From the IMG/VR virus record IMGVR_UViG_3300033149_002181, positions 1 through 52,861 of that record: a DNA stretch of 52,861 nucleotides. One strand, given 5' to 3'. The notes beneath the pieces were generated by a model. The model was not told the DNA's origin. It was given only the letters and a program-made list of their open reading frames with translations, and did no database searches. Origin of the DNA: a virus. Lineage: Duplodnaviria > Caudoviricetes. Shown here piece by piece: positions 1-44,014 of the stretch (position 1 is the stretch's first letter; each line of letters starts with the position of its first letter). The translations under genes and the position numbers were made by a program.

Positions 1-134
1 ATCCAAACCTGAAAGTTATACAATTATAATTCAAGGATAATCCCAGCTAAAATAATTATTAACACAATTAATATAATTCAGAATAAAATATACAGAGGAC
101 AGATGTCCTTATTTTTATAGGAGGATTCTTGCTT

Positions 135-935: not shown

Positions 936-975
936 TCATCCTCCCTCCTTTTTATATTATAATAGCAAAAATTTC

Positions 976-3282
976 TTATTTTTTCAAGATCAATACACTT
1001 AACTCTCTGTCTCCTGAATATGCGTATAATCCAGCCACATCTATTTTAGCTCTGCCTTTAATAGTATGGGTTCCAGCCGATACATTTTCTTCAAAATGAA
1101 TAATAGTAATATGTGATCCTGTTAATGAAAATTGCTCTCCACCTGTAATTCTAACTCGTGCTTCTTTGTCTGTTATATCAGTTCCATCATAATTTAAACA
1201 CCATGATGCGCTTAAATTATTTGTAACAGCTTCTTCGATAACTACCCAAGCATTCACTTGCATAATAAACATGCAAGATGCTGCTTCCGATAATGTGAAT
1301 TGCTTGCTAAAATTAGTAATATCTGAATAAGAAGTACTATTTATACGTGTCCCTGTATTATCATTTTTTGTAAATATTTGACGGTTAGTAAGGGCTCCAT
1401 CGGCGATTTTTTCTGTTGTAGTTGCTCCATCTTCTATATCCTCTGTCTGAATCCTTCCCGCCACCGCGCTAACCTGACTCGTATACCCCGAATAATTTCC
1501 CGAAGTGTCGTAAGCCCGCGCTTTCACGTAATAGGTCGTGCCCGGTGTCAGGTCTACTAAATCAAATCTGGCTGCCCGCCCTTTAGCTTTAAGCGTACTA
1601 CTTGATGGCGTAAACCCGCTTGATGTGGAAACGTGGATCTCGAATCCATCCCAAGTTATCTCAGGATTTGCATTCAACGTAACCGTCAAACCACGAATAG
1701 CAGAAGTGACAGTTAAACCGGTAGGCGTAGAAATCGTCTCCGTCATCTGGACGTTTCTGGTATTCGGCCTCCCAGCCGCCCCCGGTCTGGTTTGCATTTT
1801 CAACCACCGGCGCTTACCGCCGATAATTCGACCACATCCTGTTATTTCTGTCCTATATTTATGGCTGTCGAAATCTAAGGAGTGCCGGAAGCTCTCTACT
1901 CCGTAAAAATCATTTGTCGACGATAATTGGGGATTTATTACCACTATCCCTTTAAATATGTCCATCTCCGGTAAAAACGGCATATTGATTTTAGTTGTGC
2001 TTGTCAGGTCTTTTAGATCACTTAGAGCGGCATTGGCTAAATCAGTAGCTTCAGCAGAGGTATCAATCATGGAAGCATCGTCTTCCTCTATTTGCATAGC
2101 CCTGCGCCCGTAAGCAGCTATGCTAGCCGAATCCGTTACCGTTACACTTGCCCGGTCACCGGTGGAAATATCTCGATAGGTGACCTTGATGGCATTCCGC
2201 ACGTCACGATCCGAAATGTCCAAATCCTGGACATAAAAATCGTCTTCATAATCGAGAACGAAATCAGCTCCAACTGCAACCATAGACCGGGGCGGTTCCA
2301 TGAGTGTCAATTTATATTGGCTCGTCCCGGAATCCCATCTATATCCGCAAAACCATCCGAACATGCTTGTAATTTTCTGAAGGGCATCCCATACCGACAT
2401 GTATCCAATTTTAGCCGCATCGGTGTTTAGTATGGCAAATCCGGGAGAAACAGGGGTATACAAAGTGACCGCTCCGGCTCCTAAATTGTCGTCCAGAATA
2501 GACTGCATTACAGTTTCTGCCGGCGTGCCCCCTTCGCTGCCATACTGTGTTTCCGTCTCAATATAACAATCTTGTAGACGTTTAGACAAATCCCGGCATT
2601 CGCACGAGACGGAAAAAGGGCTTGTTGCAATAGAATCCCCTAGATATCCATGAAACAATGTAATGTATCCAGTATCGGCTGCATAATGCCTATAATTCAT
2701 GAGGACTGTTATATTCTCCGGAGGTGGAGTCGTAAAAGTTACCGCGCCGGTCGTTGTGTTAACAGAAAAATCGCTGGTATATTCAGTTGTGCTTTTTAAG
2801 CTGTTCCATCTGATATTCGTCGCCTCGGCCCAGGTTATGTTATTTAGTTCAGACCAGGTGTACGAGGCTCCGGCTGAATCTATCTCTACCGAACCGGAAA
2901 CTATAGGAACATGCTCCAGATAAAAAACGGTAGTAGAACCATCTCCTACCCCAATTACTTCTTGATGAACATAGGATTCAGCGGTTACGCGCGCCTGAAA
3001 TTGTACTTCACGATTCGGCCACAATAAGGGTGCATAGCTGCCGGAAAATTGATTCCATGAACTGTTTCGATCACGAGGGGCGAATGAGTTGTTTTCATCA
3101 TTGTGCAGAGTAAACGACATCCGACGCACTACTCCGTCAACGCCTGAACCGGTTCCCACTCCCGACACATCGCCCTGTTCTATTTCAAGTCTGGAGAGAT
3201 ATTCGGTTACATCTTCCCAAGTCTCGCCGTCAGTGCGACCGATATATAGTTTTGTGTATATTTTTCTATCGGAAGGTATCAT
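976..3282 (-). CDS. Tail tip/baseplate hub protein with fibronectin type III domain
   Basis: 768 aa, downstream of the tape measure gene; FN3 signature (LTPGTTYYVKARAYDTSGNYS). Confidence 0.75.
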   Translation of the reverse strand: MIPSDRKIYTKLYIGRTDGETWEDVTEYLSRLEIEQGDVSGVGTGSGVDGVVRRMSFTLHNDENNSFAPRDRNSSWNQFSGSYAPLLWPNREVQFQARVTAESYVHQEVIGVGDGSTTVFYLEHVPIVSGSVEIDSAGASYTWSELNNITWAEATNIRWNSLKSTTEYTSDFSVNTTTGAVTFTTPPPENITVLMNYRHYAADTGYITLFHGYLGDSIATSPFSVSCECRDLSKRLQDCYIETETQYGSEGGTPAETVMQSILDDNLGAGAVTLYTPVSPGFAILNTDAAKIGYMSVWDALQKITSMFGWFCGYRWDSGTSQYKLTLMEPPRSMVAVGADFVLDYEDDFYVQDLDISDRDVRNAIKVTYRDISTGDRASVTVTDSASIAAYGRRAMQIEEDDASMIDTSAEATDLANAALSDLKDLTSTTKINMPFLPEMDIFKGIVVINPQLSSTNDFYGVESFRHSLDFDSHKYRTEITGCGRIIGGKRRWLKMQTRPGAAGRPNTRNVQMTETISTPTGLTVTSAIRGLTVTLNANPEITWDGFEIHVSTSSGFTPSSSTLKAKGRAARFDLVDLTPGTTYYVKARAYDTSGNYSGYTSQVSAVAGRIQTEDIEDGATTTEKIADGALTNRQIFTKNDNTGTRINSTSYSDITNFSKQFTLSEAASCMFIMQVNAWVVIEEAVTNNLSASWCLNYDGTDITDKEARVRITGGEQFSLTGSHITIIHFEENVSAGTHTIKGRAKIDVAGLYAYSGDRELSVLILKK

Positions 3283-12526: not shown

Positions 12527-12865
12527 TCACTTTCCTTTCGCCTTGTCAAGATTAAGTGGAGCCAGCTCCTCCATCATACGTTCCTCTCGTTCTGCCCGCC
12601 TGTCTTCTTCTTCCGGCGTTAAGACTTTTCCAGAATGCTGTTTGTTTCCATGGTGAGTGCGCTCTGCGGAACCGATGAACTCAGCCCCGCAGATGGCACA
12701 CTGGTATGTTTCAGCCTTCTTCCCGACCGGGGCGAAATAGCCGAGGCGGACGAGCTTCTCATCATTCCGCGCGCCTACGAGCTCTACGATTTGTCCTCGG
12801 TCAAGCTCCTGTCCCGCATAGCCAAAGGGTCTCCTTGCCCAATAACGTTGCTTGGTAGTTGCCAT
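12527..12865 (-). CDS. Hypothetical protein with zinc-finger-like motif
   Basis: CAICG...HH; follows the capsid gene. Confidence 0.5.
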   Translation of the reverse strand: MATTKQRYWARRPFGYAGQELDRGQIVELVGARNDEKLVRLGYFAPVGKKAETYQCAICGAEFIGSAERTHHGNKQHSGKVLTPEEEDRRAEREERMMEELAPLNLDKAKGK

Positions 12866-13821
12866 TATACCACCGCCCCACTCATAAAGAGACCGGCATT
12901 TGTGCCGGTTGCTTTTTGGTCAAAATAGGTGTTAGCCTCGATGATATCCACCTCACGTTCCTCATCGCGCATCCGTTTGATATACTGAAGCGCATTGGCT
13001 ACTATTTGCCAGACGAAGGTATAACCGGCAGCAGGAGTTAGCAGAGACGGCCTCTCTGGAACGTAAATCATCAAAGCATTCTTGCCCCAAATCCTGGAAT
13101 ACGACACTGAGGATTCGGCAGTGCCCTCGGCAGAGGCAGTGTAAATTGCCCGACCGATCAGTACTTTGTCAAACTCAGCCAGCGAAGCAAACAGATCTTT
13201 GGTCATCTGTCCTTTCTGGGTGTACTTGATGGTGTCAATCAGATCCGGATGCCATTTGAGCTTAAGCCAAACCTGTTTCCCTAGTATGAGGGCGTTAGGT
13301 TCGCGGCCAATCAATGCCTCGACCGTGTCCTTGTAGTCGTCAAGATCAGTCAGCGGACTGGAGTTAGCATAGTCTGACCAAACGGTGAAGTCGGACCCGC
13401 CAGTCTTGTCGGTGCCCCAAACACCGGTCGTAAAAAAGTCGGTAGCGAACGCCACCTCACGCCGCATTTGGATTTTATCCGTCACCCACTCGGTTGCATC
13501 CCGGTCCAGGTTGAACGGAGCGTCCGCATTCTTCCTGGTCTCATCGTCGATCTCTTTCCGGATGGAAAAGCGGTCGCAGAAATACTTCGCGGTGGTTGTT
13601 ACCTTCCACCCACCACCAGCGGACTTAGTCCCCGGGGCCCTCAGTTTGGCCTCATCCCTAAACCAGTGAGACTGATCGTACTGCGGGATGATGTCAGACT
13701 GCTTCTGCACCGGCACGATCGGAAAGATCTGGTCGGCAATGTATTCCGGATTCTTGTACCCGATAGAAATATTGGTCAACAATTGGTCTACATGAAGCGT
13801 GCTTGCTACAGGATTAGGCAT
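12865..13821 (-). CDS. Major capsid protein (capsid E-like)
   Basis: 318 aa; HVDQLLTNISIGY...IADQIFPIVPV N-terminus typical of this capsid family; synteny. Confidence 0.88.
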   Translation of the reverse strand: MPNPVASTLHVDQLLTNISIGYKNPEYIADQIFPIVPVQKQSDIIPQYDQSHWFRDEAKLRAPGTKSAGGGWKVTTTAKYFCDRFSIRKEIDDETRKNADAPFNLDRDATEWVTDKIQMRREVAFATDFFTTGVWGTDKTGGSDFTVWSDYANSSPLTDLDDYKDTVEALIGREPNALILGKQVWLKLKWHPDLIDTIKYTQKGQMTKDLFASLAEFDKVLIGRAIYTASAEGTAESSVSYSRIWGKNALMIYVPERPSLLTPAAGYTFVWQIVANALQYIKRMRDEEREVDIIEANTYFDQKATGTNAGLFMSGAVV

Positions 13822-13852: not shown

Positions 13853-14245
13853 CTAGGTCGTGCTCAGCGTAAACGGCCCGGTCAGCAGTACACGAATAAC
13901 CGTCCCGTCGGCAGACGAAGCATCAAGCGCAATACCGGCGATATAGTTGGTGTCAGACGCTTTTTTCACTGCTTTGCCGCTTGCATCGGTGCCGACGTAA
14001 TCGCCAACGGCAATGTTGGTGCTGGAGCCGTCAGATACGACCTTGCTAATGCCCAGCACCCTTACTTGTGCCGCATGATACTGGGTCGGCTTGTTCTGCA
14101 ATACACCGATAGGCTTATCTGCCGCATTGTCACAGACATCAACTTGATCAGTACCACTCAATTCAACAAAGTAATATTGCTTTGCGCTCAGATCGTTCTC
14201 AGCCTTTGCGCTGATGTCGAATACAGCCATTTCGGTTGCCATCAA
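13853..14245 (-). CDS. Capsid decoration/cement protein
   Basis: IGVLQNKP...VGTDASGKAV...GIAL...DGTVIRVLL; directly upstream of the capsid gene. Confidence 0.75.
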   Translation of the reverse strand: MMATEMAVFDISAKAENDLSAKQYYFVELSGTDQVDVCDNAADKPIGVLQNKPTQYHAAQVRVLGISKVVSDGSSTNIAVGDYVGTDASGKAVKKASDTNYIAGIALDASSADGTVIRVLLTGPFTLSTT

Positions 14246-14256
14246 TATCTACCTCC

Positions 14257-15141
14257 TTAAATCCTAACCGCAGTCTCTTTGCGGTACTGTTCATAAAGCT
14301 GCGGGTTTTCAGCCAGCACTTTCGCCAGCGCGTCCATCCTGCTTAAGTTGGCGTTTTTCTGCACTAACCCCGCTGCCATGGCCTCGACTTTGGCAACAGC
14401 GGAGTCGCCAGCGGGCATGCCGCCTCGGCCAATCTCAGCATAGAGCGCGCCTTTCTCGATGGCTTCACTGGCCGCCTTCAGCACACCTTCAAGCTTGGTA
14501 TATTCTTCCGGCGCCTTTTCAGCCAAACCCTTCAGCACCAAACCAAATTCTTCCGGCTTGGTCGGCAGGTTGGTAAAGTCAGTCGCGGCCTTTTGCACGA
14601 ACTCCTTGCGAAGCTGCTTGTCGCGTTCTTCCTTAAGCACCTTCTCAAGCTCTTCGGCTTTCTTGATGGCTTCCTGCTGCTCTTTCCAGAGTGCCTCTAC
14701 CGCAGGACGAACTTCTTCCGGAATACCGGAAAAGTCATAGCTTCCGTCTTCCTTTTTGGTCGGTGCAGGATAACCATATTTCTTCTTCTTGTCTTCTTCT
14801 TCCTCGTCTTTTTTGTCCTTAGCCTTCTCGGTCGGTGCAGGATAGCCGTAGCCGGCCAACTCGGCCAGAGTCTTCATGATGTCCTTGGGCAAGGAGTCCT
14901 TATAAGCGTTGAGTAGTCGTAAAGCGCCTTTGACTGCATTCTGTGCCTTGTCGGATAGCTTGGCTGCTTTCAGGACTTCCTCCACTTTCTGCTCATCTTC
15001 AAGTTCAGTTTCTAAAACAGCCTTAAGAATTTCTTCCATTGAACTTCCCTCCTCAGATTTGTAAATAAAAAAGCGCTTTTTTACAGCGCCTCTTGGTACA
15101 AGACTAACTTCTGGAATTTCTAAATCACTTAATTGGTACAC
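14257..15141 (-). CDS. Scaffolding protein with N-terminal XkdF-like EVSLV segment
   Basis: Charged coiled coil; N-terminus LSDLEIPEVSLVPRGAVKKRFFIYKS; two YGYPAPT repeats. Confidence 0.7.
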   Translation of the reverse strand: MYQLSDLEIPEVSLVPRGAVKKRFFIYKSEEGSSMEEILKAVLETELEDEQKVEEVLKAAKLSDKAQNAVKGALRLLNAYKDSLPKDIMKTLAELAGYGYPAPTEKAKDKKDEEEEDKKKKYGYPAPTKKEDGSYDFSGIPEEVRPAVEALWKEQQEAIKKAEELEKVLKEERDKQLRKEFVQKAATDFTNLPTKPEEFGLVLKGLAEKAPEEYTKLEGVLKAASEAIEKGALYAEIGRGGMPAGDSAVAKVEAMAAGLVQKNANLSRMDALAKVLAENPQLYEQYRKETAVRI

Positions 15142-15153
15142 ATAACCACCCTC

Positions 15154-18100
15154 TTACGCTATTTGGATGTCAATAAACTCCACCTCCGGTAACTTTGGTT
15201 TGTCAATTGAGGTCCTCACGCCAAAACCACCAACAGAATAACTTGTTAGCCTTCTTTCTTCGACCTCTTTCCATAATCCATCGGCCTGAATTTTACTGCC
15301 GAGAATCCATGCCCCGGAATGGAATATCTCTCCGCCGCACTTAACCCTGTACGCCCTATGTGGCTTCCCTTCCATCGCCTTCTGCCAGTCATCATATGAG
15401 GGGTACGGGAATAGATAACTCTCGACAGGCACAGCATCGGCCTTCTTATGATGTCGATAGCCTAACAAACGAGATTTGATCAGCCAATTATGTGCCACCT
15501 GCTCAACATCTGCTGGACTTACCCAATCGTCCTGGGAATCAACTTGATAGGGATCCAACGCTACACCATACACAATTCGTCGGGGCTGATCGATTTTAAT
15601 GATCGGAGCCTGGTACTCTTTAGCAATTTTCGCTTTTGCCACATCAATTTTCTGTACGGGCTTACCTGGTTCATCAGCCCAAAGTAACCATTTTTGACCT
15701 TTCTCTTTTAGTTCGCTTATGACATCAGCGAGTTTGTGCGTTTTTGTATATGGTTCCTGCGATTCTGGCCGGTTTACTAACCATACTCTTCGCCCCTGTC
15801 CCAACGGAGCATATTGTATAAGTAAACGGCCTTTCAAGTGTTTGCCGTTCAAAAAAAGTTCACGTCCGTGTTCCCGGGCAAAAGAAAACTTGTACTCGCC
15901 ACCGTCAAGTTTAAAAAACTTTGAATAAGTTTTGCTCGTAGACCCGGGGCCTCCGGGTTCAGAAATATACGGACCTTTATCTGTAATGGTTATCCACCTA
16001 ACAGGTTGGAACAGTTTGAACTGGCCTTGTAGACTGTCATCAGGCGGTAATTCAAGCAGACGACTTCCGTACTCCGTCTTACGGATGTCTTCGGTATCGC
16101 CCTCAAAGACTGAGAACCCCCAAGCTGTCTCATCGTCTATCTGGAAGCGCAGGTCGCCGTGGACACTATGGTTGGTTTTCAATAGCTCTTCGTGGCTAAG
16201 TTTGGTTTCTTCCTCGCTCAGCCCGCGCCAGTGCATCTGATAAACCCATCTGCCTCGTCCAGATTTCGGGTACATGTTGTGCCATTCTTCTTCATACAAC
16301 TTCTCCGCTATTTCAGCCCGAGTGTCGCCTTCCTCGCCTAAACGATCAGCTTTTTCCACCTGTTCTAGTGCACGTTTAATTTGCTTTAGCTTCCTCGCTA
16401 CCTCCCCGCTGTCCCCGAACCGCCTAACCGCCATCGGGTGAGGCAAAACAAAATCCGCTCTTTCACCTAGAGCGGACTTAGCGGTCTGACCTAACGCAAC
16501 TATAATTTGCGGATTGGCTTTGTCTAGTTCGTTAAACAGCCAATCGCGCCATTTTTCTATTTCTTCTTTGCTTGGTTCGCGCACCCGACCTTTTTCATCG
16601 GTCAGGAACTGGGGAACTGCATTGGTGAGAAACACTTCATTAGGCTTGAGACCCAACGGTTTCAAATAAAGTTCTTTAAATGTTTCCCCGCTGGGGCCGG
16701 TAAACGGTTCCCCCCTAGCTGCCTCAACCCGGCCGGGAGAGGCACCTACAAAGACTAGTTTTGCGTTTTTAGGTCCCCGACTGGGAACTATGTCCTGCAT
16801 CGATTTCTGAAGCACCTGCCCGCGCTTCGCAACATCGATAGCTTGAGCAGCAGTGTAAGGTTCTTTTCGAGTATCATCCACATCAATTACACGAGCTCCA
16901 AGCCAAGCGAGAACTTTCTTCTGTTCGTCCGGGATAAGCTCCAGCACCTCGCACGTGATAATGTCGCCAACCTTGGCCTTAATGTTTGTAGAAAACGTCT
17001 TACCTAAATCAATGTACTTCTTGCCGTTTAGTTCCCGAACGTTGCGCCACTCCATACCTACGCTCGGCAGGAGACCGCCCCAATAGTTGTAGTCTCCAGC
17101 TTTCGTGCGCTGTACGTCAAGCACGATAACTTTCAGCTCAATAACTCGCTTTAGCTTGAACCACTCGTCGGTGGCCCCGCTCAGTTCGTATTTACCTCCG
17201 GCAGACTTCGCTACTAGCCCCTCGGAGCGGTCCTGGTCGAACGCCCAGCGAGCGGCCACCTTAGCTTCCTGTGGCGTCTTGCACCATTTCAAGGGAGAAA
17301 TAGTTAACAGCTTTCTGAGGTTCAGCGACTCCAATATCTTGCGCCTTTCCTTGAACGGTTTATCGCTCAAATCTTCTCCCCAGTACGGCACATCAAAGAC
17401 CGTCAAAATAGGCGTCTCGTTTTCAGCGAACTCTGGTTTCTCGCGGTTGAACTTCATTAGATCTGGCCTTGCCACCCGCTTACCGTCGCGCAGCATGCCC
17501 AAGTCGCAGTCTAGGATAAAGTCAGCGTTAAGCTTTTCCAAGACCGCTTTTATCTCGGGGAATTTGTGCAGTTGGTCTTTGCCATATTGCCCCTCAAACC
17601 AAAGCCGTAGCTGGCTGCCCTTTTTTTCGGCAATGCTCCTGAAACCATTATGCTTCGGCTCTACAGCTATCGGCCAGCGGTTTTTTGCCCACTCTAGCAG
17701 TTCGTCTATGGTGTAAGCTTCTGTGTATTCGGCCATGCTCGGTTTGGGCGGTACAAACTTCTCAAATGGCTCCAACCCCGCCTTGCTTACTGTCTCCGGC
17801 TTACGTAATATACCTCGGACATAAACCAAATCGTCATTCTGGATTTCCTCCAGCTTCTCAACCTCGAACTTCGGGCGGCCTTCAAGTAGGTTATCCTGCG
17901 TCCAAAAGACGAAGGTGGACTTATTCCAAAAGCTCTTGTGGTCGGGGTGGTTAAACGCGCCCTCTCCTTTCGTACTCGGCACTTCGAAGACAAACTTGCC
18001 GCCGGGCTTTAAAACCCGGTGGATTTCGACCATGATGTGCTCTTTATCCGCGAGATGCTCCAGGACGTGGTTTGCGCGTATTTCATCCGCGCTGTCGTCA

Positions 18101-18939
18101 GGATAGGGTATACCCTGCTCTAGGTCATATACTACATCAACCTGCGGGCCCGGTTCTTTATCGATTCCCGTATAGCCGTCGGGTTTAGAATCGCCACAGC
18201 CGAGATCTAGTTTAAGTGCGTCTCCTTTCACTACTTGGCGTCTCGGTTCCTCGCGCCGGAGAACTAGCGAGTAGCACGGTATGAAATCTGCATGGCTGCC
18301 TTGTGGCGAATCTATAAAATGGAGTATTCCTTTTTTCTCGGGGTCAAGCACCTTTCGCACCGGTAGCCAGACATTATCTGCATGGATCAGAAAGTTCTCA
18401 CCAGATTTATCCCTGTTTGCCCTGAATAGTACATCTATATCTTCCGGGTTTTCCTTGCCCACGGCTGCTGATCCCACAACAGAGACAAAGTTAGGAACAA
18501 CAACCACTTCCTGCGGCAGGCTTGCCAATTTCGTCTCTATACTCTGGGCTTTTTTCACGTCCTGGAGCTTCTTTGCTTCCTGCACCAGTTCACTGTTTTC
18601 GTCGTAGTCAAAGCCCCGGTGATCGAATTCCTCCATTACCCAGATGGCGGCATTGACAATCTCCTCCGCCGGTTCTTTACGTTTCTTGGCCGCACTATAC
18701 CACTGGTGCAGTCTAAGCCACGCTTGCCTTACCTCTTCATCCGGCGCCTCTTTTAGCTTATCAGGCCGTATTTCAGCCAGAGCCATTTTTTCTAAAAAAG
18801 ACGGTTCCTCCGGCTCGCGCCATCGGGCCTTACCACCAGCAGCGGGAAGAGCGGCCTGATGTATAGCGTTCCAGGCCCAGTCTGGAAGCAGCTCCTTTGC
18901 TTTTTCTAGAGCTGTCTCAAGGTATTCTTTGCTTGGCAT
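15154..18939 (-). CDS. Multidomain head-module protein: NTase, SAM methyltransferase, ATP-dependent DNA ligase, UDG-like, LigD phosphoesterase-like and XkdF-like protease domains
   Basis: VVGS...EDIDVLF; LDLGCG...HVLEHL...LKPGG; EPKHNGFR, FDV, EGLVAK, WFKLK plus OB fold; FVGASPG, TNAV, HP; QMH...HGDLRF; RRIVYGVALDP...SYSVGG. Confidence 0.82.
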   Translation of the reverse strand: MPSKEYLETALEKAKELLPDWAWNAIHQAALPAAGGKARWREPEEPSFLEKMALAEIRPDKLKEAPDEEVRQAWLRLHQWYSAAKKRKEPAEEIVNAAIWVMEEFDHRGFDYDENSELVQEAKKLQDVKKAQSIETKLASLPQEVVVVPNFVSVVGSAAVGKENPEDIDVLFRANRDKSGENFLIHADNVWLPVRKVLDPEKKGILHFIDSPQGSHADFIPCYSLVLRREEPRRQVVKGDALKLDLGCGDSKPDGYTGIDKEPGPQVDVVYDLEQGIPYPDDSADEIRANHVLEHLADKEHIMVEIHRVLKPGGKFVFEVPSTKGEGAFNHPDHKSFWNKSTFVFWTQDNLLEGRPKFEVEKLEEIQNDDLVYVRGILRKPETVSKAGLEPFEKFVPPKPSMAEYTEAYTIDELLEWAKNRWPIAVEPKHNGFRSIAEKKGSQLRLWFEGQYGKDQLHKFPEIKAVLEKLNADFILDCDLGMLRDGKRVARPDLMKFNREKPEFAENETPILTVFDVPYWGEDLSDKPFKERRKILESLNLRKLLTISPLKWCKTPQEAKVAARWAFDQDRSEGLVAKSAGGKYELSGATDEWFKLKRVIELKVIVLDVQRTKAGDYNYWGGLLPSVGMEWRNVRELNGKKYIDLGKTFSTNIKAKVGDIITCEVLELIPDEQKKVLAWLGARVIDVDDTRKEPYTAAQAIDVAKRGQVLQKSMQDIVPSRGPKNAKLVFVGASPGRVEAARGEPFTGPSGETFKELYLKPLGLKPNEVFLTNAVPQFLTDEKGRVREPSKEEIEKWRDWLFNELDKANPQIIVALGQTAKSALGERADFVLPHPMAVRRFGDSGEVARKLKQIKRALEQVEKADRLGEEGDTRAEIAEKLYEEEWHNMYPKSGRGRWVYQMHWRGLSEEETKLSHEELLKTNHSVHGDLRFQIDDETAWGFSVFEGDTEDIRKTEYGSRLLELPPDDSLQGQFKLFQPVRWITITDKGPYISEPGGPGSTSKTYSKFFKLDGGEYKFSFAREHGRELFLNGKHLKGRLLIQYAPLGQGRRVWLVNRPESQEPYTKTHKLADVISELKEKGQKWLLWADEPGKPVQKIDVAKAKIAKEYQAPIIKIDQPRRIVYGVALDPYQVDSQDDWVSPADVEQVAHNWLIKSRLLGYRHHKKADAVPVESYLFPYPSYDDWQKAMEGKPHRAYRVKCGGEIFHSGAWILGSKIQADGLWKEVEERRLTSYSVGGFGVRTSIDKPKLPEVEFIDIQIA

Positions 18940-18940: not shown

Positions 18941-19834
18941 TCACAATTTCCTCCTGACTAACCCTTCTGTACATCGACATTGCGGATGTAAAATCGGACC
19001 CACAATCCCGCCTTCATATGCGCCTTCAATCGGAGCCCGTTTACCATCCATCGCCATGCATTGCTCACATGAACGTTCGTCGGGAGTATAAATCCATTCA
19101 CGTTCCATTTCTGCAGGATCAAGATACCCCTCATCTACCGCTTGTCTCCAGGCTTCTCGCTGTCCCTCATTAGCCGCCATCATGGTTTCTGTACGTGCAA
19201 TCACTTTTGACCGATAACGCAACAATTTCCGAGAATAACTATCAGCCATTTCATTTACTCGTTTTAATGATCGCGTGCCATCCTCTGCTAACCTGGCCCA
19301 ATAATTATCTACGGCACGCATCTGTCGCTCGGTAAGACCAATGTAATTTCGAATCTTCCTTGCCTGTTGATAAGGATGGCCACCTTCCTCAAAAGCTCGG
19401 CGAATTATTGCCTGAATAGCCTGTCGACTTTCCTCCGTTATCTGAGTGATAAGTTCTCCGGTATGCCGGTTAATAAACTCAACTGCACGCGGGTTAAGTA
19501 GGTCAAAACGAAGCTCCATTTTTAATCTCTTACTTAATCTTCTTACTGTTGCTTCTCCAGCTTTATTTATAATATTTTGAAAAATCTTTTTAAATGCCCA
19601 AAGACCGGCACCAAAAGCGACCCAGTCGATTGAGTTTTCAACGGAGGTTTGATTCCCTCTTTCTATACCTTCGGCCATTTCTTTTACCTTGACTTTCTCT
19701 TTAGTTTCGGTAACTGCTGATAAAAAAGATCTCTCAAAGTTGTCTTGTTCATCATCCGCTATACGATGTATCACACGCCATTCTGGACTTCTTGACTGAT
19801 CAGCTTTCAAAATAGGTTCGCGAAAAACAAACAC
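18941..19834 (-). CDS. Head morphogenesis protein (MuF/SPP1 gp7 family)
   Basis: IARTE, C..C and HPQCRC motifs; follows the portal gene. Confidence 0.9.
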   Translation of the reverse strand: MFVFREPILKADQSRSPEWRVIHRIADDEQDNFERSFLSAVTETKEKVKVKEMAEGIERGNQTSVENSIDWVAFGAGLWAFKKIFQNIINKAGEATVRRLSKRLKMELRFDLLNPRAVEFINRHTGELITQITEESRQAIQAIIRRAFEEGGHPYQQARKIRNYIGLTERQMRAVDNYWARLAEDGTRSLKRVNEMADSYSRKLLRYRSKVIARTETMMAANEGQREAWRQAVDEGYLDPAEMEREWIYTPDERSCEQCMAMDGKRAPIEGAYEGGIVGPILHPQCRCTEGLVRRKL

Positions 19835-19859: not shown

Positions 19860-21131
19860 TCATTCTTCTATACCTTCACTGGGTAGATTTGCCACCTCTA
19901 ATAAGTACTTCTCAAGTTCTTTGTTCGGGAATAAAGGCATTCCCGCCATCGCCAGTCGGGATATGAAATTGCTTAATTCCTCCAGACTAATGGACTCAAT
20001 GTCTCCATGCCTCAGCTCAGGATATTTTTCTATTTTGAATTCGTTCAACTTAAATAACCTCGGTACTGCATGAGTATTCAGCACGGCTTCAATTTCATCC
20101 AGAAAGGCGCCTATTGCAACGGCGAAAAGCTCCGTTTTTGAGCTTGCCAGTGCGAAACTACCCACCTTCTGAGTCCCCAACATAATAAAGTCCGCCAGTA
20201 CTGTTTGTGCTATCTGCGTATTATACCGTTGGATAATGGTGCTGGTATCGAACTGTCGTCTGCCTCCGGTAGAAAGCAACTGTATATCGTACAGCTTATT
20301 TCCTTCTTCATCATAGGCCAGCGGCATAACAATTCCTTCCTGCTGATCCCGGCGGATCTTGGTTACCAGACTCTTAAACGCATTTAGGACCGTAGTTTCA
20401 GCGTCTGTTGACGGATTTGCTACGTTAGGCGGTACCCAGACAACGGGGAGTCCAGCTAAATCGCGCTCTACACCGATACCCTCAATAGTCTCAATATTTT
20501 TCTTGAAATACCAGGGTTTGTAACAATTCCTCAGCATGCTCCGCCCCTGTGGCGAATTCTTCATCGATTCTGTCCTGAAAAGGAGCAGCTTCTCAATCGG
20601 TATCTCCCGGAGCTTATAGTCTGGCGGCGCTACTTGTCTTATGCCTTGGATCCCGCCTTCCTCATCGAATATCCATTCTTGTATTGAGTCTTGACTGCGA
20701 ATCGAAAACTTCCGCCAGCCTATTCTGCCGTCGTTATATTTGCTACGTTTTCTAGGATCCTGATTGTCTCCCAATCGACGCTTATATACAATCTCAAAAA
20801 CCGAGTAACCGTACACCAACATAGATAAAACTTCGCTTATGAAGTCCTGCCATGAATGGCTAGTATCATGGATACATTCCTCCAGAAACCTGGCTGCTTC
20901 TCTATCGGCGTTGCTGGCACCTGCTGCGTCAACCCGCCATGGAACTTGACGACATAGCATCCTTATGGCGAAAAGAATGGCACCGATTATCGGGTCGTTA
21001 TCAGCCATCTCCCTGTACACACGAGTAGCTTTAACGCCTTGTAAATCTGGAAGCCACTCTTCATATATATTTCCGCCCCATCTACTAAGGCCCGTAGATC
21101 CTAACATAGTATACAAGTCTATTTTAGCCAA
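19860..21131 (-). CDS. Portal protein (DUF935/Mu gp29-like)
   Basis: After TerL; YGYSVFEIVY, PQGRSMLR, ERDLAGLP and GSFALA motifs. Confidence 0.88.
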   Translation of the reverse strand: MAKIDLYTMLGSTGLSRWGGNIYEEWLPDLQGVKATRVYREMADNDPIIGAILFAIRMLCRQVPWRVDAAGASNADREAARFLEECIHDTSHSWQDFISEVLSMLVYGYSVFEIVYKRRLGDNQDPRKRSKYNDGRIGWRKFSIRSQDSIQEWIFDEEGGIQGIRQVAPPDYKLREIPIEKLLLFRTESMKNSPQGRSMLRNCYKPWYFKKNIETIEGIGVERDLAGLPVVWVPPNVANPSTDAETTVLNAFKSLVTKIRRDQQEGIVMPLAYDEEGNKLYDIQLLSTGGRRQFDTSTIIQRYNTQIAQTVLADFIMLGTQKVGSFALASSKTELFAVAIGAFLDEIEAVLNTHAVPRLFKLNEFKIEKYPELRHGDIESISLEELSNFISRLAMAGMPLFPNKELEKYLLEVANLPSEGIEE

Positions 21132-21134: not shown

Positions 21135-22484
21135 TTATCGCCTCCAGCGGCTTTCACCGTCGATGCCAACAGGCGAGAGAATCGGCGTCTGCATGCCAGA
21201 CTTTACTGCCCAGCATGCTAATGCCAGACTCATCACACAGTCGTCATGCCGACCTTCCGGTGCTTCGGGCCGTACGTTCATTCCACGTCGTACCCGCCGG
21301 AAAAATCGAAGCTCATCCCTTATGGTTGTATTACTTGTCGGTAGAAGCAGCTTTTTTTGTTCGACCTGGATCATCAAGTTTGAAATAAGCTCCTCTCGGC
21401 TGCGTTGCGTGAATACAAACGGCACGCAGTCCTGTACCTGCTCCGCTACAGGATCGCCTACGCCCGTAGCATCAAGATAAACCTTAGCCGCATACTTTGA
21501 CTGCAGATTGTTCACTTGGGCCACAATATCACCGTAAAGCCTGCTGCGGTAGCGATACCACTCGACGATCCTGTATGGTGTCATTGTTATGTCCAATACT
21601 GTTATAACCGTGTAATCTTGATATTTTGCTAAATCCACACCGATGCTGTATACATGGCCTTGCTCCCGCGCGCCCTCAGGTCTATAATCTTCAAACACGT
21701 GCTGGAGAACTGACCAAGGAAAAACTATTGTATCGTCATCGATGAACTCCGCTAAGTACTCTACCCGGAAAGCTAACTCAGGAACTTCTTTGCGAATTCG
21801 TTCAACTTCTTCCAAATCCAGACGGGGGTTATCGAAAACCGTGGCATGAAAGCTTCGGTAGTAACCACTGGCATCATTTAACCCCTGTTGATAGAGCTGA
21901 TATATATATCCCTGGTTACCGTTAGGTGTGGTTTCAGCCCGGATTTTCCCTTTCCGATCTAGAACCATAGCCCTAATGACATCGTTATAAACTTTATCCT
22001 TTACGAATGCAGCTTCGGTAATGACAACTCCATCCGCACCTTTACCTCGGAGATAAACCCCGTCCCGGGCAGTAGACCGCGCCATAATCCGGCTCCCGTT
22101 GATAAGTTCAACTTTCGGAAAAGGAGACCACTTAAATTTTTTCCCCGGCACCAAAATGGAAAGCAGCGGGTTTTCCATCCGCTGCTCAAGCTCGCTAAAA
22201 TATATTTTCGCCTGATCCATACTGGGAGCCGTGATATACCAGCGCTGTTTTTGCTTAGTGGCGCATTCATGAAGTATATCCACCAAGGTAGTTAAAGTTT
22301 TACCGAAGCGTCGGCCAGCTACTTTTACTGAGACCTTGCCACCCAAGTTAACCGCCTTGGACTGTTTTTCTTCCAAAACCACGCCTAGAAACTTTTCAGC
22401 GAAATAAACTTTATCATTGCGACACCTTTTAAGCACATCTCTGGCCTTCCGTTGTTGCTCAACCGTCCATATCATCATCATCAT
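21135..22484 (-). CDS. terL: Terminase large subunit
   Basis: Walker A AGRRFGKT, LRG..AD, TTPNG motif C, nuclease GVDLA, DATGVG and HDDCVMSLALA; start probably in the MMMM run (22475-22484). Confidence 0.93.
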   Translation of the reverse strand: MMMMIWTVEQQRKARDVLKRCRNDKVYFAEKFLGVVLEEKQSKAVNLGGKVSVKVAGRRFGKTLTTLVDILHECATKQKQRWYITAPSMDQAKIYFSELEQRMENPLLSILVPGKKFKWSPFPKVELINGSRIMARSTARDGVYLRGKGADGVVITEAAFVKDKVYNDVIRAMVLDRKGKIRAETTPNGNQGYIYQLYQQGLNDASGYYRSFHATVFDNPRLDLEEVERIRKEVPELAFRVEYLAEFIDDDTIVFPWSVLQHVFEDYRPEGAREQGHVYSIGVDLAKYQDYTVITVLDITMTPYRIVEWYRYRSRLYGDIVAQVNNLQSKYAAKVYLDATGVGDPVAEQVQDCVPFVFTQRSREELISNLMIQVEQKKLLLPTSNTTIRDELRFFRRVRRGMNVRPEAPEGRHDDCVMSLALACWAVKSGMQTPILSPVGIDGESRWRR

Positions 22485-22965
22485 CCCAAAGTGATTGAAA
22501 AGCGTCGACCAAACGGGATTGCGGGTCATCACCGATAAGTTCTTGCCGTGTTCGCATTGCCTGGCGTATTTCGCTCTGCAACTTCTCCCGTAGCTGGACC
22601 AGTGCAAGTGGCGGATTTCTCCTCTCTTTAATGAGGTCTTTTAGCCAAGCTTGTGTTGCTCGACTAAGTTCATAGTTATCCGTTATAGTAGCATCCAATA
22701 TTTCAACGTCACTCAGCCTTTTCTTGACCTGCTGTTGCATTTGTTCCTGGCTCTTCCAGTACTGCTCCCTAACTTCAGCTTTAATGTCAAAATGTTCATT
22801 CATGTGTTTCCAGATGGACTGGTGGCTTATTTTTTCCCCATGATCTTCAAACAGCTTTACAGATGCGGCTCTGGGACTAAGACCTTCCTCTTTGCACCAT
22901 TTTTCTATTTCAGCCCGGCGCTGACTGTTGCATACCTTGCACCGGGAAGAATATCCAGTCGGCAC
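22459..22965 (-). CDS. Putative terminase small subunit
   Basis: Directly upstream of terL; CKVC...H..H plus HTH-like region; GTG start at 22965 after AGGAGGTGG. Confidence 0.65.
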   Translation of the reverse strand: MPTGYSSRCKVCNSQRRAEIEKWCKEEGLSPRAASVKLFEDHGEKISHQSIWKHMNEHFDIKAEVREQYWKSQEQMQQQVKKRLSDVEILDATITDNYELSRATQAWLKDLIKERRNPPLALVQLREKLQSEIRQAMRTRQELIGDDPQSRLVDAFQSLWDDDDDMDG

Positions 22966-23800: not shown

Positions 23801-24064
23801 TTATACTCGCTCCCAAATTGCCACATAAAAATAACCTGCCGGAAACTTATATACACTCATTAATTTAAATAAAATTTCTTTCGGAATTTCCCAATGCCCA
23901 TTTTCGTACATGCATAATGTACCTAAATCAATTCCTAATTGTTCAGCAGCTTCTTCCAAAGTTAAACCCCTGGCTTGTCTGGCATCAACAAGACGCTCTG
24001 GAACAATATAGTCAACTATTTCTCGTTTTCTAACACGTACTTTAAAATCATGAAATAAACTCAT
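23801..24064 (-). CDS. XRE-family HTH protein
   Basis: RLVDARQARGLTLEEAAEQLGI...YENG. Confidence 0.8.
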   Translation of the reverse strand: MSLFHDFKVRVRKREIVDYIVPERLVDARQARGLTLEEAAEQLGIDLGTLCMYENGHWEIPKEILFKLMSVYKFPAGYFYVAIWERV

Positions 24065-24309
24065 TTTTAATGTTCCCTAATATGTTATTTTTCTGAATTA
24101 AATTTTATTTCCTCAACTTGAATCTGCTTTCCCTCCGGCATCATTCGAATCCCGTCTATAATAGCACTCATAATTCGTGCAGTATTTATTTCTTTGGGGA
24201 ATTTAATAATACAATCAATTTTTATTTTCATTACTGCTATTTCCTTTTAAAATATTTTTAAGCGGAGGAGTGGGGAGCTCCCTGTATGGAAAAACAGATA
24301 ACCTGATTT

Positions 24310-25002
24310 TTACCATCCTTTTCGGATAGCTCTCTCTGATACCACTATAGCACAGAAACATACCCTCTGTAGTATTGAATTTGTATGGAACGTGATTTTT
24401 TTAACAAAACATCGATACTTCGGGGAAAATAGAGATATTATGTATGCCCAGACATCCTCCCCTTTCCAACCAAAAACCGGTCGGCATTTCCATATTTCCT
24501 CCGTCTTTGAAAAATAAAACAATCCATATTTACCACTGTATTTTCGGCCTAAACTTTCCTCTCCTCGTAAACCAAATATTAAACAATCTATATCAAATTC
24601 GTTAATTGCTTTCTTTATACCGGCCATTAAATTATTTTTTAAAATTTCACGTTTGATATTACTTAACCCGCCTGCTTCCCGATATATTTCAAAAATTTCT
24701 TTCGGCGTTTTAACTCGATGATAATTCAATTTATACTTTTGCGCATAATTATCATACATTTCAACAGCTTCTTCTAAATCTCCGCCTTGACCCCGATCGA
24801 TATTTATAATCAATATATCCGGCTTAATCTGCCTTGCAATATCCACACAAACAAGACTATCTTTGCCAAAACTAAAACTAACTGCTGGATTTCGGCATGT
24901 TTTAATCGCTTGTTTAAGCGCATTTTGCGCTTCTTCCAAGCGGCGCTTAAATCTTGGTAATAACGCTGTCATAAAATACTGATCTTTTTGCCATTGTTCC
25001 AT
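24310..25002 (-). CDS. cysH: CysH-like PAPS reductase family protein associated with type IV-B Cas; C-terminus possibly truncated
   Basis: PP-loop VSFSFGKDS, GLRGEES..R and CRPVFGWKGEDVWAYI motifs. Confidence 0.85.
   Translation of the reverse strand: MEQWQKDQYFMTALLPRFKRRLEEAQNALKQAIKTCRNPAVSFSFGKDSLVCVDIARQIKPDILIINIDRGQGGDLEEAVEMYDNYAQKYKLNYHRVKTPKEIFEIYREAGGLSNIKREILKNNLMAGIKKAINEFDIDCLIFGLRGEESLGRKYSGKYGLFYFSKTEEIWKCRPVFGWKGEDVWAYIISLFSPKYRCFVKKITFHTNSILQRVCFCAIVVSERAIRKGW
24344..24390 (-). promoter_or_regulatory. Putative late promoter (extended -10 TGCTATAGT)
   Basis: TGn-TATAGT without a clear -35, pointing towards the packaging genes. Confidence 0.4.
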
Positions 25003-25871
25003 CTCCTATACCCCCAGACAGTGTAAAGAATCATCGGCATAACAATAAATATCCGCGCCGTCGCATACCATGTCCATATCTGCGTCGCTGTTTTAGTTGC
25101 AAATAATGGCCATGAAAATAATGCGGCAACGGATATAACAACTGCCAATATGTCACCAGATAGATCTTGCAATGCCGCAATACATGAATCGAGTGTCGAC
25201 GTTGCCACGGCTATGATTATAATCGCAAATAATATTTGTGAAATTGCGCCTTGAGATAGAAAGGCGAAAAATACCAGGCTTAAATATAGGCCAAAAGCCA
25301 AAGATGCCAAAAGCCACGGATTGACACCTTTAATCCTTTCTGCACGTTGAAATTGCTGGCCGTCGAGAAATGGCCCGGCCATCAATCCTATACAAGCAGA
25401 TACAACCCAGCTAACATTAACCGGCTGATAATTTAAAACATTAAGATTAAATTTGCCTGTCAAAATAACAAGCACCAATCCACCAACCATAGCTAAATAT
25501 TGCCATTGATCACTTTCAACAGAAAACTTAAATTTATATTTATATGTCAGAAGAAATATTATGGTCGCGACAGTAGTTGCCCATCCGTTGCCAATATAAG
25601 TTGCCATGATCCTAATATTAATCCATATACAAAATATTTGTATCCCAATCATAGCTAATTTGATAAATATACTATTCTTTAATTTGATATAACCCGGATA
25701 TTTTCTTACGAACGCCCCATAAATAAATAGTGATAAAATGTTACATACCGCCCATGGCAGAAAAGAATGTAAGCCCATAGTTTTTAAAATACTAAAGCTC
25801 ACGCCCAAACTAACTCCCCAGGCCCAGGAAGCGGCTGCACTAATACCTAATTTAAACTGTTTGATTTGCAT
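24969..25871 (-). CDS. Polytopic membrane protein, sodium:solute symporter-like
   Basis: About 9-10 hydrophobic segments; SAAASWAWG, SVESDQWQY, GPFLDGQQFQRA and STLDS resemble SSS-family motifs. Confidence 0.6.
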   Translation of the reverse strand: MQIKQFKLGISAAASWAWGVSLGVSFSILKTMGLHSFLPWAVCNILSLFIYGAFVRKYPGYIKLKNSIFIKLAMIGIQIFCIWINIRIMATYIGNGWATTVATIIFLLTYKYKFKFSVESDQWQYLAMVGGLVLVILTGKFNLNVLNYQPVNVSWVVSACIGLMAGPFLDGQQFQRAERIKGVNPWLLASLAFGLYLSLVFFAFLSQGAISQILFAIIIIAVATSTLDSCIAALQDLSGDILAVVISVAALFSWPLFATKTATQIWTWYATARIFIVMPMILYTVWGYRRWNNGKKISIL

Positions 25872-26526
25872 TGCATGCTAACCTCCGATCGTTTGGTATT
25901 AATACTCTCGTCCACTGCCACGCAAGCCAATATGGTGAACGAATACCCATTTCAACATCTCCGTTTTCATCGGGAATGGCCCGGAGGTAAGAAAGATCCT
26001 CCGGCCACTCCCCGACTGTCCAACGTACCACTCGTCCAAACCCCTGGCTACGTTTTTTACCGATGTGAGTCACGTATTTTAGCAATATTTCTATTTTGTT
26101 TTTTTCTCCTACTGCATACCATTCCAGCTTTGGCATAAGATATGTCACCAGCGGCATTCGATAGTTTTTATATTGACCTGACTTAACATTGACCTTTCCG
26201 CGTTTTTTGCCGAAGTCAATGTATTTCTGCGCGTCATCAAAATCCAATCTTTTATGCCAGTGCACTATCTCTTCGCGTTGCGGTTTTCCGCAGGCAAACG
26301 AACAAGCCCAATACCAGTCATCATCTTCGCCTCGTTTTTCAAGCGGTAAATCAGGGACTATTAAATTTTCCGGCATAATACTGCTTTGAGAAGCAATCAT
26401 AGCTTCAGGGTGATTCAATCTAATCCAAACCTCAGCCAGAATTGAGTCGAGAGGCAGAAAAAGATCATATGTTGCTATTTTCCCAGTCTGCATATATGCA
26501 GTAATTTTCAGTGGTTGCATATTCAT
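25852..26526 (-). CDS. csf3: Type IV CRISPR-associated Csf3 (Cas5 group RAMP)
   Basis: PLKITA...LPLDSILA, WACS, G.YKNYRMP, WYAVG, G-rich loop IGKKRSQGFGRV, RSPYW. Confidence 0.88.
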   Translation of the reverse strand: MNMQPLKITAYMQTGKIATYDLFLPLDSILAEVWIRLNHPEAMIASQSSIMPENLIVPDLPLEKRGEDDDWYWACSFACGKPQREEIVHWHKRLDFDDAQKYIDFGKKRGKVNVKSGQYKNYRMPLVTYLMPKLEWYAVGEKNKIEILLKYVTHIGKKRSQGFGRVVRWTVGEWPEDLSYLRAIPDENGDVEMGIRSPYWLAWQWTRVLIPNDRRLACNANQTV

Positions 26527-32581: not shown

Positions 32582-32936
32582 TCAAGCCCTCTCTGCACCG
32601 TCTGCACCCGCCGAAGGTGTCTCCATGCTTTTTTCTTCGCTAGCTCCGGACTTTGTGCCGGGACCCGCATTGTAGAAGGCCAAGGCGGTCAGATAGTCGC
32701 CGTTTGCTTTGTCATAACAATATTTTAAAAATTGGATTCCTACCTCGAAAACCTGATCTAAGTTCCGGAAATCACCGGTTGGCCGAAGGATTTTAAACCG
32801 ACCATATGTAACCTGGATCGCCAACCTCTCACCAATCTATCTCAGCTTTGAGATCTGCTATTTTTTGAAATTGGCAGTAGCAGACGACACAGGCAACGAT
32901 CAGAGCAGTGAGGATAAGGGATTTTAAAACGTTCAT
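32582..32936 (-). pseudogene. Degraded lytic transglycosylase (SLT)-like gene
   Basis: Signal-like N-terminus from ATG 32936 stops early; another frame carries QV...GIQFL...GDYLTALAFYNAGPG. Confidence 0.5.
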
Positions 32937-43993: not shown

Positions 43994-44014
43994 CTACCAT
44001 AAACTTTTATTTTG

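Follow-up and report, generated by a model that had tools for sequence, protein, structure and literature searches.

A single gene in the head module of a temperate phage is predicted to encode a head-maturation protease (an XkdF-type serine protease) that carries a train of enzyme domains, some 1100 residues long, at its N-terminus. The phage has a siphovirus-like genome and is represented by the IMG/VR record IMGVR_UViG_3300033149_002181, of 52,861 bases (100% complete according to CheckV), the whole of which was analysed and is referred to below as the window. The train of this protein, P0001, appears to consist, in order, of a helical N-terminal domain, a probable nucleotidyltransferase (NTase) of the Pol-beta type, a methyltransferase dependent on S-adenosylmethionine (SAM), an ATP-dependent ligase, a domain of the uracil-DNA glycosylase (UDG) superfamily and a domain with the 3'-phosphoesterase (PE) fold of bacterial LigD. 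Our preferred reading, which stays tentative, is that P0001 is a capsid-targeted cargo for healing and sealing DNA ends in the manner of LigD.

Four of the domains match Pfam models above the curated thresholds (Methyltransf_11, DNA_ligase_A_M, UDG and Peptidase_S78_2, the last of these being XkdF), and PHROGs and NCBIfam give the same domain classes. The NCBIfam equivalog and subfamily scores are all far under their cut-offs, and for this reason the domains are regarded as divergent members of their families. An artefactual gene fusion or a misassembly was considered, and is ruled out by full-length relatives of similar length on many independent contigs. An earlier note, made from the sequence alone, had proposed a series of domains for this open reading frame (ORF), and their N-to-C order and coordinates map correctly onto its residues.

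The region between the UDG-like domain and the protease (residues 850-1110) has no Pfam match in P0001, and it was therefore analysed by way of its predicted structure and of an alignment of 40 copies cut from IMG/VR loci. AlphaFold gives a model of the domain with a mean predicted local distance difference test (pLDDT) of 89.5 and a predicted template modelling score (pTM) of 0.85. Foldseek finds seven matches for this model in the PDB at E<=1e-3, all of them to the PE domain of LigD with probability 1.00 (3p43, 3n9d, two chains of 3n9b, 3p4h, 5dmp and 2lj6). With VIA, 123 of 124 residues are aligned to 3p43 with a Z of 13.4 and a root-mean-square deviation of 2.3; five other PE entries have Z of 8.5-13.1 (3p4h 13.1; 3n9b 11.5), and the next unrelated entry has a Z of 3.1. 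The profile of the alignment reaches six chains of the PDB at E<=10, five of these being PE proteins (best 5dmp, E 4.2e-4), and matches HSVHGDLRLE..LWGFAV of this domain to H(L/R)LHYD(L/F)RLE..LKSWAV of the PE structures, H927-G-D929-L-R931 being paired with the HYDLR or HYDFR of 5dmp, 3p43, 3p4h and 3n9b. H903, H927, D929 and R931 are invariant in all 42 full-length relatives. The metal-binding and catalytic residues of the PE domain of Pseudomonas aeruginosa LigD are H42, H48, D50 and R52, and from the pattern of the QxH motif H903 would be the equivalent of H42. The curated model PF13298 (LigD_N) matches weakly in 32 of the 40 relatives (best 9.5e-5; among the scores are two of 17.4 bits, where the cut-off is 31.1), has no match at E<=10 in P0001's own copy and gives none in a six-frame search of the record. 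Since it falls under the Pfam gathering score, the domain is a divergent structural relative rather than a member of PF13298; compared with the PE domain of LigD it also has a helical insertion of about 17 residues. At the level of predicted fold and of motif, the LigD-type phosphoesterase that the earlier note had read from an H..H.DLR pattern is confirmed.

The ligase is matched by PF01068 (DNA_ligase_A_M) over residues 402-597, with 58.2 bits against a cut-off of 26.2 (E 1.2e-15). Against the PDB, the profile of the ligase family finds archaeal and eukaryotic DNA ligases at 1e-25 to 1e-19 (the archaeal DNA ligase 3gde at 1.2e-25), and the best NCBIfam matches of the P0001 ligase include models for LigD and for ligases of non-homologous end joining (NHEJ). 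The KxNG of motif I, noticed previously, is K429-x-N-G432. K429, G432, D516, E573, G574 and K595 are kept in 42/42 aligned relatives, and other positions are nearly as constant: N or D is found at 431, and D477 and F515 are each found in 39, K578 in 41 and K597 in 35 of the 42. These residues represent motifs I, III, IIIa, IV and V. The oligonucleotide/oligosaccharide-binding (OB) fold that had been proposed to follow is less secure. Residues 598-706 are indeed conserved among relatives; their profile finds no ligase OB domain in the PDB, and Pfam DNA_ligase_A_C has no match here either, leaving a conserved block recognised by no sequence search.

The UDG-like domain is matched by PF03167 over residues 719-841, with 83.2 bits against a cut-off of 24.3 (E 2.4e-23), and its closest PDB matches, at about 1e-11, are family-4 and UdgX chains. 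The more specific models score below their cut-offs (TIGR03914, for UdgX, 92.5 against 189.95; TIGR00758, for family 4, 69.6 against 125.3). Motif A of the form GE(A/G)PG and motif B of the form HP are signatures of family 4. The PF.G and HP motifs are kept, with H834 of motif B present in 37/42, and on reading the sequence of the domain no loop of the KRRIH type, as in UdgX, was seen. Relatives found with tblastn fall under phage "DNA polymerase" annotations. The domain therefore resembles family 4, UdgX and polymerase-fused UDGs in its PF03167 membership, its PF.G and HP motifs and its closest PDB chains, and it differs from family 4 and UdgX in lacking the Fe-S cysteines, in having GASPG in place of GE(A/G)PG, and in the TIGR scores. 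The lack of Fe-S cysteines and the GASPG motif had been described in the earlier note. Judged on sequence the domain is a UDG-superfamily member of uncertain activity that fits neither the family-4 nor the UdgX definition.

The first 135 residues form a conserved domain in which W74, R76, L77, W80, E92, N96, A97 and E104 are invariant across the family alignment. An AlphaFold model of residues 1-235 has a pLDDT of 67 overall, and of 82-91 across most of residues 1-135. This model has no match in the PDB at E<=1e-3 by Foldseek, a wide search of the N-terminal domain with VIA gave helical hairpins only (best Z 7.3), and the ESM Atlas gave no usable match for residues 1-135. In the module that follows, the GS..DID motif (nt 18433-18474) corresponds to G156-S157 and D167-I-D169, in agreement with the signature hG[GS]-x(9-13)-DxD; G156-S157 and D167-x-D169 are invariant in 42/42 and in 33/33 sequences. 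R173, R195, K202 and G214 of the module are invariant too. P0001's own copy has no Pfam match. Copies of the module from relatives have sub-threshold Pfam matches to NTP_transf_2 (6/33, best E 1.4e-3), to DUF6932 (14/33) and, once, to DNA_pol_B_palm; DNA_pol_B_palm is weakly matched (0.0058) in the distant relative P0185, and clusters of the ESM Atlas that bear NTP_transf_2 score 0.92 with the module. Residues 138-232 are thus a probable Pol-beta-type nucleotidyltransferase, for which the motif proposed earlier holds throughout the family, the fold being unconfirmed and the profile matches sub-threshold.

The methyltransferase matches Methyltransf_11 with 41.9 bits against a cut-off of 21.2 (E 1.6e-10, best stretch 269-318), and four related models match it too. 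PHROG 6636 spans residues 238-343, and SAM motif I is present as LDLGCG at about residue 243, so that the class I assignment made in the earlier note is sound. The domain is 42% identical to a stand-alone methyltransferase of Synechococcus phage S-CRM01; for stand-alone relatives in Paenibacillus phage PG1 and in a Salmonella phage the gene context was uninformative. It is a generic small class I enzyme and is not recognisable as a DNA methyltransferase. Its place between the NTase-like and ligase domains is a variable slot, which in relatives is empty or holds other domains. By Pfam, a D12-class N6-adenine DNA methyltransferase fills the slot in P0002, P0024 and L084, and a domain of the metallo-beta-lactamase (MBL) fold is also found there among the long relatives; in L087 the D12-class enzyme lies C-terminal to the ligase instead. 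It is worth adding that a separate ORF at window 32933-34777 (-), in the replication module beside a DnaB-like helicase, encodes a DNA methyltransferase of 614 aa (phrog_67, 7.5e-59), so that the phage encodes a conventional DNA methyltransferase in addition to that of P0001.

The C-terminal domain is matched by PF14550 over residues 1113-1242 (57 bits against a cut-off of 24, E 2.6e-15). K1115, D1134, D1138, H1163 and S1235 are invariant, and S1235, H1163 and D1134 are the catalytic candidates, in keeping with the XkdF-like protease proposed before. A six-frame search of the record with PF14550 gives a single match, at 15214-15603, inside the multi-enzyme gene, and the other prohead-protease families searched in the same way (PF04586, PF00574 and PF10123) have none. 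Production of a free protease from an internal start was considered; near residue 1100 there is no strong Shine-Dalgarno sequence, the single candidate of that strength being at residue 536. With PF14550 matching once and no strong internal start near residue 1100, the head-maturation protease is apparently present only as the C-terminus of P0001.

The surrounding genes form a head module of lambda-like order: TerL, portal, MuF, the multi-enzyme gene, orf294, decoration protein and capsid. P0001 is therefore encoded between MuF and a scaffold-like protein, as previously noted. In 79 related IMG/VR loci searched by tblastn with the neighbours from the window, orf294 was found in 65, the capsid protein in 56, the portal in 53, the decoration protein in 44 and MuF in 41, many of the misses being due to contig ends. 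The order of the neighbours is constant, with the single exception of L071, where MuF comes before the portal. A predicted complex between the XkdF domain and orf294 has a score of 0.55, compared with 0.00 for the best of three controls, with at least 52% of contacts shared between runs and a partner pLDDT of at least 60. In calibration, 58/80 solved complexes and 2/110 mismatched pairs reach this mark, and scores of 0.60 or less are held by only 7/80 solved complexes and by both of the passing mismatches; the prediction lends weak support, and may be counted as a mild plus for targeting. Given the sole prohead protease found, the conserved place in the head module and this weak support from the complex, it is reasonable to infer that P0001 is targeted to the virion.

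Compared with XkdF/Peptidase_S78_2 proteases (XkdF of Bacillus PBSX; PHROG 3017), the likeness lies in the profile, the gene position and the Ser/His/Asp candidates. Ordinary members have about 200-400 aa, comprising the protease alone or the protease with a scaffold, whereas P0001 adds about 1100 N-terminal enzyme residues, and the scaffold-like part is here a separate gene downstream. A "DNA methyltransferase/prohead protease" of a Rhizobium phage was examined as a precedent for the fusion; the annotated protein has 212 aa and is a protease alone. The N-terminus of orf294 (window 15090-15141) has the motif EVSLVPRGAVKKRF, found family-wide as EVSLV.(R/K)GAN.KK, and its match in PHROG 3017, "head maturation protease", is likewise at the N-terminus. 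The C-terminal PEVEFIDI of P0001 (window 15157-15190) resembles this motif, and the shared end motif could be a docking strand or a recognition site for the protease. The XkdF module itself (window 15157-15657, residues 1095-1261) is 95% identical to that of L010 and only about 49% identical to those of L001, L002, L012 and L018, relatives whose best whole-protein segments are 71-78% identical to P0001. Its insertion of 18 residues and its C-terminal tail (..LPEVEFIDIQIA) are features that otherwise occur in a distant subgroup. This mosaic suggests recombination at a domain boundary.

Table 1. Location in the window of P0001, of its domains and of the neighbouring head genes.
Feature	Residues	Position	Strand	Basis or remark
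Multi-enzyme ORF (P0001), ending in prohead protease	1261 aa	15154..18939	-	1261 codons, no interruption
Conserved helical N-terminal domain	1-135	18535..18939	-	alignment and model
Probable minimal Pol-beta-type nucleotidyltransferase module	138-232	18244..18528	-	invariant motif and weak profile matches
Class I SAM-dependent methyltransferase, variable slot	236-385	17785..18234	-	Pfam, PHROG
ATP-dependent ligase, adenylation domain	396-600	17140..17754	-	PF01068, motifs
Conserved block after ligase, in OB-domain position	601-706	16822..17139	-	alignment of relatives
UDG-superfamily domain, family 4/UdgX-like, cysteine-free, motif A GASPG	712-845	16405..16806	-	PF03167
LigD-type 3'-phosphoesterase fold with helical insertion	885-1095	15655..16287	-	model, fold search
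XkdF-type (Peptidase_S78_2) putative serine protease	1108-1250	15190..15618	-	PF14550
TerL		21135-22607		head module
Mu-type portal protein		19860..21131	-	PF06074 2e-39, phrog_113 3e-87
MuF-like head morphogenesis protein, directly upstream of multi-enzyme gene		18941..19834	-	PF04233 1.3e-9, phrog_3517 7e-46
orf294 (P0066), helical, K/E-rich, scaffold-like, downstream	294 aa	14257..15141	-	conserved N-terminal EVSLV..GAN motif
Decoration/cement-like protein		13853-14245	-	PF09956, phrog_673
Major capsid protein, lambda-E-like		12865-13821	-	phrog_1005 3e-90; weak Phage_cap_E

A word-indexed search found 64 database relatives of P0001, all of them from metagenomes or metagenome-assembled genomes (MAGs). 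In IMG/VR, a pattern scan gave 152 matches; relatives are encoded by 128 of these stretches, and 79 loci were retained. Because its patterns were taken from the PE and N-terminal motifs, the scan overstates how often these two domains are present. In 185,579 species genomes eight loci were found, all in uncultured MAGs, which belong to Bacillota, Dehalococcoidia/Chloroflexota, Synergistaceae, Methanothrix, Leptospira and Thermogutta. The combination of domains is absent from the 50,697 GenBank phage records of INPHARED, where 30 records match some single domain and none reaches 80% coverage of P0001 (best 25%). A full-text literature search for the combination, including DUF6932, found no paper describing it; in the earlier note this exact combination was not recognised either. 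The family is large, uncultured, modular and widespread, and is undescribed in the literature searched.

Architectures were scored by tblastn for seven domains, at a coverage of at least 50%, in 71 of 87 loci, namely those that are not truncated. The full architecture of P0001 is found in 14 loci. The commonest arrangement (29 loci) has the N-terminal, NTase, ligase, UDG, PE and XkdF domains without the methyltransferase; the ligase is missing from 8 loci (5 of them also without the NTase), UDG is missing with XkdF kept in 8, both UDG and XkdF are missing in 6, and by subtraction the remaining 6 have scattered other architectures. The NTase module reaches much further: in a search of the full library its profile finds 441 cluster representatives at E<=1e-3, and 143 at <=1e-10. 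In ten distant bearers of the module scanned with Pfam, it repeatedly lies beside Methyltransf_11 and DNA_ligase_A_M. Some bearers are giant proteins with further domains, such as P0187 (ADPrib_exo_Tox), P0169 (GNAT, 2H and XkdF) and P0151 (Mu-like protease, MBL, ligase and XkdF), and 2H/LigT phosphoesterase domains are found in P0059 (at the N-terminus), P0060 and P0169.

A few variants of the locus may be added. In the subgroup L030-L059 (for example L030, L033, L034 and L044) tblastn finds no MuF, which may be absent or may be too divergent; here the multi-enzyme gene follows about 100-130 bases after the portal, and matches start at query residue 52. In L010, L011, L019, L026 and L065 MuF is separated from the matching region by an extra 1-2 kb. 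This might hold further cargo genes or represent an extension of the N-terminus, like the 200-300 unassigned extra residues of P0006, P0012 and P0014. In a Chloroflexota MAG (L085:5328-7760) a shorter protein has ligase and PE without UDG or XkdF, and its gene is directly upstream of that for a protein of 810 aa that ends in a Phage_capsid_4 domain of 300 residues. This adjacency ties the ligase-PE core also to a different capsid lineage.

From these observations a mechanism may be proposed; how the enzyme train is packaged, retained and injected, on what it acts and in which order are all inferred. The protease domain, with its scaffold-like neighbour, would bring the whole polypeptide into the procapsid, where the active protease would digest the scaffold and probably free the enzyme train. 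The train would stay in the DNA-filled head and enter the host with the genome, as may be compared with Alt and the internal proteins of T4, the latter being packaged and injected proteins, and with DarB of P1. Once in the host, it would work on the DNA of the phage itself, healing and sealing ends in the manner of LigD. The 3'-phosphoesterase would clear away a 3'-phosphate or another group that blocks the end, a nucleotide may be added by the small Pol-beta-type nucleotidyltransferase, and the ATP-dependent ligase would seal nicks, breaks or annealed ends. The UDG-like domain would recognise or remove uracil or another aberrant base, or might only anchor the train on DNA, and the variable slot would supply a protective modification, by the SAM methyltransferase here and by a Dam-type N6-adenine DNA methyltransferase in relatives. 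As substrate, DNA is favoured over RNA, and not settled, on account of the UDG domain, the Dam-type methyltransferases in the same slot and the affinity of the ligase to DNA ligases.

A more ambitious form of the proposal is possible, if doubtful: that phages ship in the virion a self-contained DNA repair machine, welded to the prohead protease, which mends their own genome at entry. This machine would recognise or excise damaged bases, clean 3' ends, add nucleotides, ligate, and methylate for protection. The damage to be mended would be the deaminated bases and nicks that build up during a virion's time in the environment, or else breaks due to nucleases of the host.

In its parts P0001 is close in design to bacterial LigD, with which it shares an ATP-dependent ligase and a LigD-PE fold on one polypeptide, together with a third module of nucleotide-adding type. 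That module is an AEP (archaeo-eukaryotic primase) primase-polymerase domain in LigD and a Pol-beta-type module of about 95 residues in P0001, in which Pfam finds no AEP or primase. Unlike LigD, moreover, P0001 is fused to UDG-like, methyltransferase and prohead-protease domains, and its gene lies in a phage head operon. Having no AEP domain and no Ku, and a PE domain below the Pfam threshold, P0001 is LigD-like but is not a LigD.

The way in which it would be delivered recalls other phage proteins. The polyvalent proteins of phages and conjugative elements, as presented in the main text of Iyer et al. 2017 (PMC5512222), likewise have many enzymatic domains, genes placed among virion genes, a MuF neighbour and shuffled content. 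Distant bearers of the NTase module carry ADP-ribosyltransferase (ART), GNAT and 2H domains, besides peptidases, and on this ground P0001 is placed among polyvalent, virion-delivered proteins, a kinship that the earlier note had also seen. With several enzymatic domains, a virion gene context and a variable architecture, it is by its gene a polyvalent protein. Its core of ATP-dependent DNA-type ligase, LigD-PE and UDG-like domain is unlike those in the main text of PMC5512222, where the only ligase is an ATP-grasp RNA ligase, polyvalent 2H domains are never seen with RNA ligases, "UDG" and "XkdF" are absent, and "uracil" is found in a reference title only. The vehicle is also different, being the XkdF prohead protease here and MuF, a metallopeptidase or a relaxase in the polyvalent proteins of that text; where the jumbo-phage survey PMC7824862 speaks of XkdF, it is only as a head peptidase. 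In its account of packaged proteins, PMC5512222 gives T4 Alt and P1 DarB as packaged in the head, Alt as injected with the DNA, and DarB as protecting phage DNA in cis. The proposed logic for P0001 is shared with DarB, Alt and the T4 internal proteins, namely a late enzyme that enters the procapsid, is processed by the head protease and is delivered with the DNA, and the methylation or protection of incoming DNA in cis by DarB has its parallel in the methyltransferase slot. Those proteins use short targeting sequences or helpers, whereas P0001 is fused covalently to the protease; none of them is a ligase, a phosphoesterase or a glycosylase; and their packaging is demonstrated, whereas that of P0001 is a prediction.

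Several observations weigh against the proposed capsid-delivered end-healing cargo. The phage is known only from a metagenome. As a rule, the protease of the prohead is broken down and does not remain in the mature head, a folded cargo of 125 kDa would need to unfold to pass the tail, and the ligase requires ATP, which is absent in the capsid, unless it were packaged pre-adenylated. No Ku (PF02735) is found in the record at E<=1, and Pfam finds no apurinic/apyrimidinic (AP) endonuclease or 5'-kinase in P0001 or in 22 distinct relatives (6 long relatives, 6 architecture ORFs and the 10 distant module bearers). Since some relatives lack the ligase (8/71) or UDG, the "kit" varies in composition. 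The UDG-like domain is free of cysteine over residues 705-850, as is also the case in 31/42 relatives, and hence of Fe-S ligands; the family-4 Glu is absent from its motif A (G732-A-S-P-G), position 733 being A, S, D or G and never E in 42 sequences; and its pocket residues are partly conserved (F746 in 22/42, N773 in 28/42). Residues 138-232 are modelled with a pLDDT of only 50-68, the fold of the module has no Foldseek match, its profile matches nothing in the PDB except isoprene synthase, by chance (E 1.2), and no conserved third carboxylate was identified in it. In the PE domain of P. aeruginosa LigD, His84 and Tyr88 are essential; the profile alignments to PE structures do not extend over the corresponding segment, and a conserved K975-L-x-Q978-P979-x-x-W982 may take their place. 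What the earlier note had called a repair kit is therefore upheld in that the domains were found, and weakened in that UDG is without the Glu and the Fe-S cysteines, that a 5'-kinase, an AP endonuclease and Ku are missing, and that the NTase fold is unproven.

The difficulty with ATP is avoided if the enzymes are parts of a late-gene polyprotein that is not injected, and act in the infected cell or at the procapsid during packaging, after which they are cleaved off and lost or degraded. Uracil would be removed, nicks cleaned and sealed, and concatemers methylated, so that the DNA is packaged intact. ATP and SAM are present in the cytoplasm and not in the sealed capsid, it is common for prohead proteases to be broken down once the head has matured, and nicked DNA impedes headful packaging in some phages; the gene lies within the late head operon, and no other ligase was noticed in the record, in a search that was not exhaustive. 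We consider this account rather unlikely. Action in the cytoplasm needs no covalent link to a protease. A prohead protease, moreover, generally becomes active only once it is in the procapsid, and by then the train would be inside as well. Relatives also bear ADP-ribosyltransferase and GNAT domains, which are typical of injected effectors, and the adjacent MuF is a head-internal protein, often fused to injected effectors in the examples given in PMC5512222.

The same capsid-delivered architecture could instead serve RNA, healing and sealing host or phage RNAs such as tRNAs cut by defence ribonucleases. PE and 2H domains would then clean 2',3'-cyclic or 3'-phosphate ends, the NTase would rebuild 3' ends, the ligase would seal, and the methyltransferase would mark the mended junction, as in Hen1-Pnkp. 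Consistent with this are the 2H/LigT domains of the three relatives named above, the action of LigD PE on ribonucleotide-terminated 3' ends, the generic methyltransferase of P0001, which is no recognisable DNA methyltransferase, the recurrence together of the NTase, Methyltransf_11 and ligase modules, and weak signals of RNA_ligase (PF09414) in L086 and P0040. It is nevertheless improbable, since DNA is the substrate of UDG domains, the same slot holds D12 N6-adenine DNA methyltransferases in relatives, and the best matches of the ligase profile are to DNA ligases (1e-25); in addition, an ATP-dependent ligase cannot join 5'-OH ends, and the polynucleotide 5'-kinase is missing from P0001 and the 22 relatives scanned with Pfam. 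Finally, that the N-terminal domains are inactive relics, serving as a bulk internal head protein or as a DNA-binding protein in packing or ejection, would suit a UDG-like domain without the family-4 Glu and Fe-S cluster, the low NCBIfam equivalog scores and a modular, variable domain content, and is very improbable, because the catalytic-type residues of the ligase, PE and NTase are invariant in 42/42 sequences, and it is hard to see, unless for catalysis, why the ligase motif and the metal-binding residues of PE should be invariant across relatives that are 38-65% identical.

Elsewhere in the record there are genes for an integrase, an anti-repressor, RecT, an SbcC-like protein, DnaD-like and DnaB-like proteins and the DNA methyltransferase mentioned above. 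The GC content is low in window 1-2000, 24001-26000 and 44001-46000 (0.34-0.37, compared with about 0.45-0.52 elsewhere), and these segments may be moron or attachment-site regions. The GC skew changes sign at about 44-48 kb, at the integrase and the neighbouring plus-strand genes.

If the train of P0001 is indeed packaged and injected, the repair of incoming DNA would join the means of counter-defence used by phages, beside inhibitors and DNA modification, and P0001 would be the first packaged DNA ligase or LigD-like repair system. Counter-defence would then also be achieved by repairing damage instead of blocking the attacker. This would help to explain the lasting infectivity of the virions of phages whose hosts are slow-growing anaerobic or subsurface organisms. 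The prohead protease would be a general handle for the loading of cargo, useful for engineered capsids that deliver enzymes. For enzymology, the family supplies compact, naturally fused ligase and 3'-phosphoesterase modules and a UDG-like domain free of cysteine.

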